Of a stretch of DNA of 64,000 nt, positions 2,966-9,824 are shown piece after piece. The stretch comes from a virus, in the IMG/VR virus record IMGVR_UViG_3300049491_000083, positions 12,009 to 76,008 of that record; one strand, 5' to 3'. The notes below the pieces were generated by a model. It saw nothing but the letters and a program-made list of their open reading frames with translations. It was not told where the DNA came from and did no database searches. Position 1 is the first letter of the stretch, and each line of letters opens with the position of its first letter. The translations under genes and the position numbers were made by a program.

Positions 2966-3118
2966 ATGAAGCAATTCCCTAGGGACCATGACCCCATCCT
3001 CATTGCAGCAGAAACGGCATGGGCAGAAGGCGACAGAGAAGAGTATACTAGACTAGTCAATCGTTGGTGTAAAGAGAACGGCTATACATTCAACGGTTGG
3101 CGCTGGACGCGGGGATGA
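2966..3118 (+). CDS. hypothetical protein
   Basis: ATGA-coupled to the upstream small ORF 2826..2969; stop lies inside the tmRNA 5' end. Confidence 0.6.
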   Translation: MKQFPRDHDPILIAAETAWAEGDREEYTRLVNRWCKENGYTFNGWRWTRG

Positions 3119-3415
3119 AAGGTTTCGACCTTGCGGGAAGGTATCAGCAGTACCACAACACAACAATAAATGCAAACACACAAACCGCATTCGCCCTAGC
3201 AGCATGAGGGCCGTGGGGCCACTCCATAGGAACAGAAAGTGGCATGGAAAGATATCCTTTGCATTAATGTAAAGGGTAAGTTACACCGTCGGGGATATCC
3301 CCCGCAAACGCAACAAACACAAATAGTATGACCGTTGGTTGTGCTTTTTGTGGCTACAAAGACGCTGATATTGGAAGGCAATGGGACCGGGGTTCGATTC
3401 CCCGCATCTCCACAA
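3111..3415 (+). ncRNA. ssrA: tmRNA, tag (A)ANTQTAFALAA
   Basis: 5' GGGGATG-AAAGGTTTCGAC; 3' GGACCGGGGTTCGATTCCCCGCATCTCCA with G3-U pair; resume context ATAAAT-GCA, tag ORF 3172..3207. Confidence 0.96.
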
Positions 3416-5360: not shown

Positions 5361-5442
5361 AACTAGGACGATACGTAAAAACAGAAAGCAGCGCCCCGCT
5401 CTTTAGTGCGCACATAAGCACCAAAAAGCGTTGGCATTGCTA

Positions 5443-7040
5443 GGCTTACAGCCCTGCCTCTGTGATGAAGTTCAAGTATGCATATGCAATGCCTATGAGA
5501 ATGAAGCCTACAATTGCTCCCCGCGTTGTCAGCATCATTAGTAGATCCTCACATTCCAGATCGTGCATTCCTGTGCGTTGTTGATAGCAGAGGCGAGGTA
5601 GTGAAGCAACTGCCTATCACTGTTAGCCTCATACTCAATGGTAGTCGTACCCATCACGCTATCCAGATCGAATACTAGCGTACTCATAGTGACTGCTCCA
5701 TCCTTGTGATGATCGTAAGGCCATGCTTCACAGCCTGTCGTGCAGTGGTATCGAAGCCACGCTCAATAGCAACGTCAGCAGCGAAGTCAAGTAGTTCTAC
5801 TATCTGCTCCCACTCATTAGCCCTGAAGGTGATGGTGATAGGGGTAGTGCTCATTAGTGCCTCACACAGAAGGCGTGACCCTTGCGGCACTCAAAGAATG
5901 CACCGTCATCGGTCACGGTATCGAAGTAAAGAGCGGGAGCCACAGGCTCAGGCATAGGGTAGAGGGAAGAGCAAGCGTCAGCAAGCCAATTCCACTGAGA
6001 GCCGCACTCGCATGACACAAGGCCACGCACATAACGGTGCTGGTACATGTTAGACATGAGCATCCATCCAATCCCACACGTCCATGACAATGTGAGTCTT
6101 GCGAGGAAGGTCAGAGACAGTACCCACGTAGGTACCGTCGATCCGATCAGTCTCTTCGATGTGATCCCGGTGGATCTCAACATCGTAGCAGTCGTTGGAG
6201 TAAGGCCCAAAGACAAAGTAGGTGAAGGGCAGCCGACCCTTAGCGGTGTCATGATACACATGGTAGGTGGGGAGAGTCATTCTCTTACCTTCTTTCTATC
6301 TAGTCCTAGACTACACCCTGTACCCGCGAAAAGCAAGCCCAAAACGGACAATGACTGGTCATGCAATGGTCAATGACTGGTCATGCTGGGCGCGGGGTCA
6401 CCAACCCCCATCATCAAAGGATTCGTCACCGAAGAAACCATAGTCCTCATCAGTACCCCACCCAGCAGAGGCGAGCGTATCAGCATCAGCCTCAGCATCA
6501 CTCATTTGATACCCCTCGTACATGGCATCATCGAACTCTGCTTCCATCTCAGCATGATCCTCAGGCTCAAGGTCATCCCACTCGTACTCATCCATTAGAT
6601 CAGCCTCTCAGGCTCAGGTGCATCGGGTGTGTTGTACAGGTCACCTAGGTAGGCATCCCATTGCTCTTGGGTCATGAGGCCCTTGTACTCATGGCATGTG
6701 GGGCACACTACCGTACCATGTGCCCACTGGTTGTCACAGAAGCAACAGACAATGTAGTCGTACTCAGTCTCATCTGCATACCCGGTCATCGCACGTACCA
6801 TGCCTCATCGCTCACGTTGCTACGGGTGATGGGGGCCAGCATATCGAAGCCCCACAGGGCAGTAGTGCTCTCATGGCACACAGGGCAGGGGCCATAGGCC
6901 ACGTTCGTCCACCCATCACCACGGGAATGCGTACCCGCGTAGGGCAGGGGGTTGTGCAGGCCACGGCCCTCATAGGCACACTCTACACAGTCAATGGTGG
7001 CAGGGCTATGCTCTGCCTCGGTCTCTAGAATCTCACTCAT
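5443..7040 (-). other. two leftward operons of small hypothetical genes (e.g. 5684..5854, 6050..6280, 6398..6595, 6595..6789, 6786..7040)
   Basis: tightly coupled short ORFs, several with CxxC or very acidic composition, downstream of promoters near 6310-6340 and 7045-7070. Confidence 0.7.
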
Positions 7041-7655
7041 AGGGCTACTCTAGCACAGGGGGCTGACAGAAGCAACCCTGTAGGGCGGTCAATTCGGTCA
7101 TTGACCGGTCAAAGGTTTGCGGGGCGCGGCAATTTGGTAACCTAGGCTTGCCAAACCTATCTGGGTACTTTGGGCCGTAGCCCTCACCATATGTTGAGTG
7201 GTCGGGGAGAGGTTGGACTTCACTCTCACCCTTCCAAGTTGAGCGGAGGGTAACGCCTAAGCGATAGACCATAGCGATAACGCAGTCATCCCTCCGCAAG
7301 ATTGTGTAGGCTGGGGATCATGGAAAGTCCCGCATTTAATACCCTCCCGGTTCGTTTGGGTAACCTAGGGCTTATGCAGGCATTGGTGGCGAGAACCTCA
7401 TTTAACATCGAACGTGTCACTATTTGTACCTGCTGCCATTGGGGTTTCGTAGACTAGGCTAACCCGGCCTTGCCGGAGCGTTCGTTCCATACTTCTGAGT
7501 TCTTGCTAACCCGGTCTGCACCGGAGCGTACCTCAGTTTTCCCAAGATCTTGGTTGTTCCTCTATGTTCTTATAGTGCTACTCTACAGGAAAATCTGGCA
7601 AAACACAAGCCAAAAACGGTCATTGACCGGTCAGCCAGTGGTCATTGACCAGTCA
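6346..7655 (-). promoter_or_regulatory. GGTCA(A/T)TGAC(C/T)(G/A)GTCA operator repeats upstream of three leftward promoters
   Basis: 6346-6361, 6368-6383, 7087-7111, 7618-7633, 7640-7655. Confidence 0.8.
7131..7573 (-). ncRNA. candidate ~440-nt structured ncRNA
   Basis: own promoter (TTGTGT-N17-TAGAGT at 7608-7580), no credible ORF, many stems, duplicated hairpin module. Confidence 0.65.
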
Positions 7656-7765
7656 TCGCTCGGCGCGGAGCGCCCCGTCCTTCGTTATGAAACCGTTACC
7701 AAATAGGCTTGATTATTCGGTCTGTTTGTGATAGGCTGGCGTTAACGCCAACGAAAGGACACACC

Positions 7766-7873
7766 ATGGCTATCTTCGAATTCTCTGACGGCTTCGACGC
7801 TCAGGGCTGGTACATGGAGCAGATGCGTAAGGGTCACTTTGACGAGGACTTCGACTATGGGGACGAGGGGTAA
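7766..7873 (+). CDS. 35-aa acidic protein in a single-gene cassette
   Basis: GAAAGGA RBS, MAIFEFSDGFDAQGWY...DEG; flanked by GC boxes. Confidence 0.65.
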   Translation: MAIFEFSDGFDAQGWYMEQMRKGHFDEDFDYGDEG

Positions 7874-7901
7874 CCCTCTCCCGCGCCCCTTTCGGGGTAG
7901 T

Positions 7902-8851
7902 CTACGAATCCCATTCCATATTTCGCAGGGCCACGGAAATATCACGCTTAAGAGTTTCAATTGTCCTGAGTGCTTGTCCCAGAAGGATGAGGTCATTGTT
8001 GGTTGCCTGCACGAATGCATTGTCAAGATAGTTGCTGACATAGTTGGCATGATTCATCGCCAACTTGAGTTCATGCGAGTAGTTGAACTCACGCATGGTC
8101 ATCTGCTTGTTTGACTTCATTCTACTTCCCATGTTTGCAGTTGATAGAACCTCTGGTACTGTACCGGTTGAGATTCGATGTAGTATTGGGCATCCATCGC
8201 ATCACTGAAGATATGATCAAGGAACTTGGCACCGTCGCCAAGGTAGAATACGCAGAATACGTCCATCATCGCTTCTTAATCTCGTAGTTGTCGTAGTCCT
8301 TCTCGCCCATTGCTCGCTTGTGACCCTGAACATAGGTGAGTGCACGAGGGTAGTCAGAAAAGAACGAGAGGTATTGGCCCTTGTAGAACACAGTAAACAG
8401 CGGGGGAGGATTCAGGTCATCCTCAGTCAGCATAGGATTAGGCATCGACAACCTCCGAGAAGAGATAGATGACGTATGCACGAGAGGCAATGGAGGGATG
8501 CAGATTCCTACCCGCCTCAAACAGCGACTCAGCCTTGACAAGAATCTGACGAGGCTCGTCATCGTGCGAATACTCAACGGCATAGATGTTCATTCAGACT
8601 TCTCCTTGATAATCTCAGTCCAGTGGACGTAGCAAAGCGGGGTACCCGCCCAATTCTTGAATGCGGGGGTATCACAGTACCCAAACTCACAGATCACGGT
8701 AAAGGTATCCATTAGAACGGAGCCTTCCAGAACTCTTCACCGTCAACGATGACGCAATCCTCACCTACCCGCAGAACCACGGAGTAGTCAAACGCGGCAT
8801 CGTAGTCCGCGAGCATCCAGTAAACGGACGCCCAATGCTCTGACAGTGACA
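7902..8851 (-). other. leftward operon of very small hypothetical genes
   Basis: coupled short ORFs downstream of the TGTCAG-type promoter at ~8880-8901. Confidence 0.55.
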
Positions 8852-9536: not shown

Positions 9537-9679
9537 CGTTCCGCGCCCCGTTTTAGATCGTTACGAGATTGTTACAAATCCCCAATGCAACGTGTTACAA
9601 AGTATGTTATCATATTGTTACCTAAAAAGACCCCATTTCGCTTGCATCACTGGCTGATCTATGGTACCTTTAGGTTACT

Positions 9680-9739
9680 GGATCGGAGGAAGCGAGAGCC
9701 AAATCTGATCCCGGTCGGTTTCTTAAAAACTACACAGTG
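9680..9739 (+). promoter_or_regulatory. boxB-like hairpin plus boxA-like antitermination motif in the tRNA-array leader
   Basis: ggatcgga/tctgatcc stem, then TTTCTTAAAAACTACACAGTG resembling rrn boxA. Confidence 0.5.
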
Positions 9740-9749
9740 GAAATAGCAA

Positions 9750-9824
9750 GCACTCTTGGTGTAACGGTAGCACAGCGGATTCCAAACCCGCTAGGTGTGG
9801 GTTCGAATCCTACGGAGTGTGCCA
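9750..9824 (+). tRNA. tRNA-Trp(CCA)
   Basis: anticodon loop TTCCAAA; CCA end. Confidence 0.9.

Follow-up and report, generated by a model that had tools for sequence, protein, structure and literature searches.

An operator-controlled phage cassette with no plausible reading frame carries a candidate structured RNA whose 5′ module is shared with one other phage lineage

What does a phage transcribe from a cassette that has operators and a promoter and in which no plausible gene can be found? The question is raised by positions 7131-7573, minus strand, of a 64,000-nt stretch of phage DNA (hereafter the window), which comprises bases 12009-76008 of the 76-kb IMG/VR record IMGVR_UViG_3300049491_000083; this record, referred to below as G000, is judged to be 64 % complete. 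A preliminary description had presented the segment as a large structured RNA of about 440 nt, possibly representing a new class or a distant relative of the GOLLD and ROOL RNAs. We find that the cassette has no coding capacity, that its control elements follow the pattern of other cassettes of the same phage, and that its first ~170 nt recur in a second phage lineage with substitutions that preserve base pairing. The reading that we favour, to which we assign a probability of about one half, is that the cassette is a stand-alone gene for a stable phage RNA that probably acts in trans. The more general proposition, that it is a gene for a non-coding structured RNA, is likely; the more specific one, that the RNA works in trans by binding a protein, is put forward tentatively.

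Coding capacity of the cassette

The absence of a plausible open reading frame (ORF) from the cassette is borne out by the distribution of stop codons and by codon usage. TAA, TAG and TGA are each present in all three frames. When codon usage was scored as a log-likelihood, with eleven long genes as the training set, no frame scored consistently across 7100-7940 of the minus strand. Use of a recoded genetic code is ruled out by the presence of all stop types in every frame together with the lack of a suppressor tRNA among the 24 tRNAs of the window. The ORFs lying within the cassette specify 28-44 aa, and an 84-aa frame opening with TTG crosses the operator and promoter of the next cassette.

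One or more very small proteins might nevertheless be made, for example from the 28-aa UUG frame starting at 7545 or the 30-aa ATG frame at 7490-7398, and the purine-rich GAGGAA at the 5′ end of the predicted RNA is similar to a Shine-Dalgarno sequence, as in neighbouring mRNA leaders. We regard this as very improbable, since the frames are not kept in the related phage G001 introduced below: a 7-nt indel and a replaced hairpin between the two known variants shift every frame, and the conservation between the two runs on beyond the stops of all the small ORFs. The small frames of the cassette also have codon-usage scores of -0.05 to -0.20, as against 0.15-0.48 for most of the flanking small genes (two of which score about 0). 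No match to the small cassette ORFs was found in Pfam or PHROG, a result that is uninformative because the real neighbours match nothing either. As expected of a non-coding RNA, no reading frame is conserved.

A conserved module with pair-preserving substitutions

Related sequence was found in one other phage lineage only, represented by the IMG/VR contigs G001 and G002 and the JGI contig L099, all three of which are identical in this region; G001 is a complete 98.9-kb genome with terminal repeats. The homology covers window positions 7378-7500 (86 % over 130 nt) and a 16-nt block at 7546-7531, includes perfect runs of 16, 16, 22 and 31 nt, and is accompanied by a predicted transcript start, AUAAGAAMAUAGAG, common to both phages. 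G001 is not a close relative of the window phage, since the identities of their DNA polymerase III alpha (PolIII alpha) and DnaB proteins are 58 % and 56 %. The coding DNA that they share is mostly 65-80 % identical and their tRNAs 80-96 %, which places the module, at 86 %, among the best conserved non-tRNA stretches. We note that a 141-nt stretch just outside the window (G000:C1:11864-12004, in L135), inside a small gene for a secreted-looking protein (MKRFIKIG...), is 84 % identical to G001; coding DNA can thus also reach such identity between the two phages.

The search for further copies was broad. A covariance model of the module (R1) picks out the window, G001 and G002 only, at 221-223 bits; BLAST over 50 PolIII-alpha relatives found no homologue, and a set of 50,697 phage records searched with megablast and blastn gave no match. 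Exact-word scans were made of IMG/VR (with words from both the module and the 3′ domain), JGI metagenomes and GTDB genomes, and matches were checked by blastn or by reading together with R1. What had been proposed as a single conserved class of ~440 nt is thus reduced, by BLAST, word scans and R1 alike, to ~170 nt conserved in one other lineage; the idea of a large structured RNA keeps its 5′ part, in which structure is conserved, and loses the 3′ 240 nt, which are unique to this phage. The elements of the conserved part, all on the minus strand, with the helices as predicted by RNAalifold, are as follows.

~7376-7546, minus strand: conserved structured 5′ module, delimited by identity to G001, G002 and L099 and by RNAalifold
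7543-7541/7444-7442, minus strand: short closing helix P1
7536-7532/7499-7495, minus strand: helix H1 (CUGAG/CUCAG)
7492-7487/7453-7449, minus strand: helix H2, which encloses the bulged hairpin P2a
7479-7472/7468-7462, minus strand: helix P2a
7433-7427/7382-7376, 7420-7417/7392-7389 and 7412-7409/7400-7397, minus strand: H3, a long interrupted hairpin
7505-7529, minus strand: hairpin copy 1, ACGCU-CCGGU-GCAG-ACCGG-GUU-AGC, at the tip of H1 in this phage only
7458-7481, minus strand: hairpin copy 2 (P2a), orthologous to the one copy in G001

Applied to the two variants, RNAalifold predicts 35 pairs, of which four show compensatory changes, two show one-sided changes (via G-U) and none is broken. 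The core differs by 13 substitutions; ten of these fall in predicted stems, and pairing is kept at all ten. The compensatory changes convert UA and AU to GC and GC in H2, and C-G to U-A both at the top of P2a and in H3. When the columns of the core were shuffled and the result refolded each time, four or more compensatory pairs arose in one of 1500 trials, and sliding the 3′ partners by 1-3 columns left no compensatory pairs and 30-48 % pairing. Indels are confined to a hairpin tip and to a linker, the 7-nt indel lying in the linker between P1 and H3, while the inner 45 nt of H3 are almost invariant between the variants and the model contains several G-U pairs. A tertiary pairing of GAACG (7487-7483) with CGUUC (7414-7410) may also occur. 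Pair-preserving covariation of the kind expected of a non-coding RNA is therefore seen, with the limited power that two variants allow; given the size of the sample the evidence is good, and it supports a structured RNA of ~170 nt.

The two hairpins of the form ACGCU-CCGG-loop-CCGG-GUU-AGC that had been pointed out earlier are present at 7505-7529 and 7458-7481, with exact arms of 9 nt and 10 nt repeated 47-48 nt apart, and the motif was not found elsewhere in the G000 or G001 genomes. In G001, H1 has the same CUGAG/CUCAG stem with an unrelated tip. The hairpin has thus been duplicated into a different helix, the flanks ACGCU and GUUAGC remaining identical while the loop and the closing pair vary; the closing pair of P2a is C-G in the window and U-A both in G001 and in copy 1. 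This pattern is that expected of a recognition element and is compatible with the protein binding that the earlier suggestion of a sponge or scaffold supposes. A kink-turn reading of the bulged hairpin was rejected by inspection, as there are no tandem G-A pairs beside the bulge.

The same region might be imagined to act as DNA, either as an origin primed by a transcript from the promoter or as a site for recombination or cassette exchange at palindromic CCTAGG/GGTTACC repeats. It is an ORF-free, repeat-bearing region downstream of a predicted promoter, three of the nine GGTWACC sites of the 64 kb fall within 740 bp here, and the phage codes for its own PolIII alpha, DnaB and primase. We consider a DNA-level role improbable, since the compensatory changes and the G-U pairs indicate an RNA, the G001 copy lacks the repeats, and neither an AT-rich tract nor an iteron array was found. 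A replication origin in particular is rejected because GC skew does not turn at the cassette (7.5 kb), the sole turn being near 20 kb.

Control elements and position of the module in the two phages

About 12 cassettes between positions 5389 and 19160 of the window are organized by one grammar: a CCGCGCCCC box and paired operators (GTTAY or GGTCA type) are followed by a promoter in which 17 nt separate TTGACx, or more generally TTGnnn, from TAGnnT, with the start 6 nt further on. The grammar of the RNA cassette is that of the protein and tRNA cassettes, and its elements are these.

7655-7678, minus strand: GC-rich palindromic box variant opening the RNA cassette, read directly and placed as are the CCGCGCCCC boxes of neighbouring cassettes
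7640-7654 and 7618-7632, minus strand: two GGTCA-A-TGACC palindromic operators, GACCGGTCAATGACC, identified by motif count against shuffles
TTGTGT at 7608-7603, a 17-nt spacer, TAGAGT at 7585-7580 and 6 nt to the predicted start A7573, minus strand: predicted promoter, read directly
7547-7573, minus strand: 5′ leader beginning AUAAGAACAUAGAGG, the first 14 nt of which recur at the starts of both tandem units of G001 (repeat D1)
7120-7129, minus strand: CCGCGCCCCG box opening the next cassette and marking the likely end of the RNA unit
6786-7110, minus strand: next cassette, with an operator at 7096-7110, TTGCTT-17-TAGAGT, a leaderless ATG at 7040 and an 84-aa protein

The cassette had been described as lying between GC boxes with an operator and a promoter. 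The operators, the predicted promoter and the downstream box are as described, but the upstream box is a degenerate palindromic variant, the exact match to CCGCGCCCC being found only in the downstream box at 7121-7129. The operator GACCGGTCAATGACC has four matches in the window, a number reached in none of 100 shuffles, and it also stands ahead of the promoters in the next two cassettes to the left (at 7096-7110, and at 6368-6382 with a second copy); the -10 word TAGAGTAGC is likewise identical at the next cassette. A generic sigma-70 scan makes no call at the promoter of the RNA cassette because its -35 hexamer is weak. The box, operator and promoter of the next cassette adjoin directly at 7129-7047, so that the RNA is the sole cargo of its own cassette. 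The 84-aa protein encoded from 7040 has 83 % amino acid identity to its G001 and G002 counterparts and a codon-usage score of 0.15; leaderless ATG starts such as that of this gene are seen in several cassettes of the window, for instance after 12935 and after 16461.

In G001 the module has a different setting: it lies within a 430-nt ORF-free leader behind two tandem promoters, and six tRNAs of the same strand follow ~130 nt downstream of it. The two promoter units (L004 5160-5330, minus strand) are 134 nt apart and each begins AUAAGAAAAUAGAGAG. The leader behind the second promoter also contains three UUGGGA...GAAAGC repeats, which are absent from the window RNA.

Both settings invite the suggestion that the module is a cis-acting leader, altering the polymerase or the transcript (by put-like antitermination, as a 5′ stabilizer or as a processing platform) as transcription runs on into the following cassettes here or into the tRNA array in G001. 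It lies 30-170 nt from a promoter in both phages and heads a run of same-strand units, no U-tract terminator intervenes between it and the next cassette, and its two similar hairpins recall the put RNAs of phage HK022, which also stand just behind an early promoter and give no protein product. The put RNA, at ~70 nt, is much smaller than the window module and uses paired stem-loops. There is no sequence relation between the two, and the cassette downstream of the window RNA has its own operator, promoter and leaderless start, so that its gene would be poorly translated from read-through. The downstream cargo is also wholly different in the two phages (small proteins here, tRNAs in G001), 150 nt are inserted between promoter and module in G001, and no Rfam match to known leaders was obtained; on balance we think a cis-acting leader unlikely. 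Because the module is the sole cargo here and is linked to tRNAs in G001, it does not appear to serve one particular downstream gene, and we read it as a stable trans-acting RNA rather than as a gene-tuned leader. The occurrence of the same core once as sole cassette cargo and once ahead of tRNAs argues for an RNA function in its own right.

The 3′ domain

7131-7372, minus strand: lineage-specific 3′ domain, recognized by its fold z-score against shuffles

The remainder of the predicted RNA folds well in one orientation: for 7128-7375 the z-score is -2.50 on the minus strand (1/200 shuffles) and -0.63 on the plus strand. The repeat CCUAGGUUACC occurs exactly twice, at 7369-7359 and 7146-7136, as previously reported, and the domain is predicted to be closed by pairing of these repeats (7369-7362/7148-7141) together with CCAAAC/GUUUGG at 7359-7354/7156-7151. 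The 8-bp stem formed by GCGGAGGG (7297-7290) and CCCUCCGC (7250-7243) is present in both the minimum free energy and the centroid folds. The long-range pairing suggested for GGACUU (7330-7325) and AAGUCC (7220-7215) is found in the minimum free energy fold of the 3′ part and is lost from the centroid; the remaining motifs listed earlier, the gcagg/cctgc and gagag/ctctc stems, are at their places on the minus strand. An alternative terminal hairpin, GGUUUGG (7157-7151) with CCAAAUU (7137-7131), can be read directly from the sequence. The CCUAGGUUACC repeats are at the same time imperfect 17-nt direct repeats around the 220 nt that are specific to this lineage, an arrangement that an insertion would leave.

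Points against a functional RNA

Several results weigh against the reading of the cassette as a stable RNA gene. Since there are just two sequence variants, the covariation amounts to one pairwise comparison; the RNAalifold structure was picked on the same two sequences on which it is judged, and for an alignment of two rows the shuffle control built into the tool has little force (26/500). The folding energy of the core is unexceptional when compared with shuffles (z-scores of +0.27 in the window and -0.62 in G001), and the whole 456-nt RNA folds no better than shuffled sequence (z -0.58). No copy was detected by R1 in 47 related phages (PolIII-alpha relatives, complete genomes included), and of the matches that the word scans gave beyond G001 and G002 just L099 is homologous, all others being chance words. 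Nothing corresponding to the 3′ 240 nt was found in the complete G001 genome, in G002, in the 50 relatives or in the IMG/VR word scans, and by our own estimate, made without a tool, a single 8-bp stem is near what chance would give in a region of this size. The -35 hexamer is weak, as already mentioned, and no U-tract intrinsic terminator is seen at the end of the RNA unit. No RNA run was found to contain the stretch, and four runs that were compared with it gave short DNA contigs only. Lastly, the high identity might stem from an exchange of cassettes in the recent past and not from lasting constraint, because the accessory cassettes common to both phages are shuffled and partly inverted.

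It could accordingly be argued that the cassette is a functionless relic, in which cassette recombination placed a piece of a G001-type tRNA-array leader downstream of a spare promoter and joined it to junk or to a decayed gene, with conservation reflecting recent transfer. The shuffling and inversion of accessory cassettes between G000 and G001, the restriction of the common sequence to the middle part, the direct repeats around the 3′ 240 nt, the narrow distribution and the want of a thermodynamic signal in the core would all agree with such an origin. Decay is harder to reconcile with 13 core substitutions none of which disrupts a predicted pair, with retention of the full promoter and operator grammar, with a hairpin duplicated into a helix tip that leaves the helix intact, and with a 3′ part that folds unusually well on the sense strand only. 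We regard the relic explanation as unlikely.

A possible mode of action

Under the favoured reading of a stand-alone, stable RNA gene, transcription by the host RNA polymerase would begin near A7573, at a promoter of early type under operator control, and yield an RNA of ~440 nt. The first ~170 nt would fold into a three-way junction (P1, H1 and H2, the last with its bulged hairpin P2a) followed by the long interrupted hairpin H3, and the remaining ~240 nt into a separate, phage-specific domain, which the paired CCUAGGUUACC repeats would close. The choice of strand is supported by the placing of the G001 module on the tRNA strand behind two promoters, by the several G-U pairs of the model and by the 3′ domain, which folds well on the minus strand only. 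In G001 the module would be co-transcribed ahead of the six tRNAs, and RNase P cleavage at the first tRNA would free it.

The most likely action of such an RNA would be protein binding through the bulged hairpin ACGCU-CCGG...CCGG-GUU-AGC, of which this phage has two copies, and through the invariant interior of H3; the copying of the hairpin with identical flanks and a varying loop, together with the two settings of the module, leads us tentatively to favour a protein-binding RNA acting in trans. We speculate further, with considerable doubt, that the 170-nt module serves as the RNA subunit in a phage ribonucleoprotein not yet described. By these two elements it would bind a protein of RNA metabolism, from the host or the phage, and it would belong with the tRNAs, the tmRNA and the putative Ro60 Y RNAs to the phage's RNA tool-kit, the 3′ domain or the tRNA tail being interchangeable cargo. 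If that is true, the module would represent a new class of phage RNA, one that acts in trans and is passed from phage to phage in cassette form. That the module travels between phages as a cassette is our conclusion from the comparison of the two genomes, and RNA modules are on this evidence exchanged among these freshwater phages in the same way as protein cassettes. The value of the locus is limited by its rarity, there being two lineages.

Relationship to known RNAs

A cmscan search of 6900-7800 on both strands with all 4227 families of Rfam 15 gave no matches at E<=10. At Rfam gathering scores the whole window yields tRNAs and the tmRNA only, and the G001 leader gives noise, such as CsrC at 10 bits (E 1.4). 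Models of the tRNA clan, tmRNA and Y RNA, and ARAGORN, likewise find no match at the RNA cassette. Membership in GOLLD, ROOL, Y RNA, the tRNA-like families, 6S and RNase P therefore fails, and the suggestion of a distant relationship to GOLLD and ROOL is not supported.

Three other identities were considered and set aside. A sponge for CsrA of the CsrB/RsmZ type is not indicated, as GGA occurs 8 times where 9.7 are expected and ANGGA twice where 2.6 are expected, and the density is the same genome-wide. An antisense regulator of phage genes is equally out of favour, since complementarity to G000 and G001 extends over 11-13 nt at most, and matches of this length occur in about the number expected by chance and include none common to both phages. 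A resemblance of some words to conserved regions of RNase P RNA is not backed by Rfam.

By context the closest analogues are RNAs C and D of phage T4 and the GOLLD and ROOL loci near tRNA islands; by sequence or model the window RNA is a member of none of these. RNAs C and D are located in the T4 tRNA cluster. The window RNA resembles them as a phage-encoded, non-coding candidate for a stable RNA that is tied, in G001, to a phage tRNA cluster. It differs in having no relation to them at the sequence or Rfam level, in being larger and of two domains, and in having, in this phage, a cassette to itself under operator control, which lies apart from the tRNA arrays and on the other strand. The T4 molecules have been described as 'RNAs of yet unknown functions' (PMC9697503).

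GOLLD and ROOL are 'often near tRNA islands' (10.1101/2024.12.08.627333), and the setting here is comparable, with 24 tRNAs and a tmRNA in the window and six tRNAs directly behind the module in G001; this likeness is contextual and not sufficient. The ORF-free, multi-helix character of the region is also shared with them, as is, for GOLLD, the division into one conserved and one variable half (10.1101/2024.12.08.627333), although the conserved half is the 5′ one in the window RNA and the 3′ one in GOLLD. That the cassette encodes a large ornate RNA of GOLLD or ROOL (RF03087) type, assembling into a multimeric cage, nonetheless seems to us highly improbable: the conserved part is three to five times smaller (~170 nt as against ~580 and >800 nt), there is no match to these or any other covariance models, the RNA is known from two lineages only, and an ornate, deeply covarying structure cannot be shown. 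Phages with large tRNA arrays have repeatedly been found to carry enigmatic non-coding RNAs (T4 RNAs C and D, GOLLD and ROOL), and to these the present locus adds a small module that is undescribed.

Y RNAs of the YrlA type are also structured and non-coding and work by protein binding, their partner being Ro60 (Rsr), but the window RNA has neither their handle words (GAGUCGRAUUG ... AUAUUCG) nor the T-arm-like GGUUCGAAUCC motifs. We note that just before the window, at G000:C1:9034-9619 (L135), there is an array of putative Y-RNA units in which these handles are combined with T-arm motifs like those of tRNA.

Neighbouring features and the phage group

A 35-aa acidic protein is encoded on the plus strand at 7766-7873, divergently from the RNA promoter, by a gene whose codon-usage score of 0.545 marks it as real, so that 7574-7765 is a divergent control region. 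The G001 homologue of this gene (79 % nucleotide identity) is inverted and lies directly upstream of the gene for the 84-aa protein, which points to cassette inversion between the two phages.

The window has a G+C content of ~51 %, and its 24 tRNAs and one tmRNA were identified at Rfam gathering scores and with ARAGORN. PolIII alpha proteins with ~58-68 % identity to that of the window phage are encoded by more than 590 IMG/VR contigs; the group is thus a large one, made up of uncultured phages that seem to be mostly of freshwater origin. The window phage also encodes RecA. The large tRNA array of the window is preceded by a promoter, TTGCAT-17 nt-TACCTT, within 9545-9750 (plus strand), with five GTTAC-type half-sites upstream of it; unlike that of the G001 array, its leader is just ~70 nt long and has no similarity to the RNA module. 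The phage tmRNA at 3111-3413 (plus strand) encodes the tag ANTQTAFALAA, whose ...FALAA end is similar to that of betaproteobacterial tags, a possible pointer to the host.

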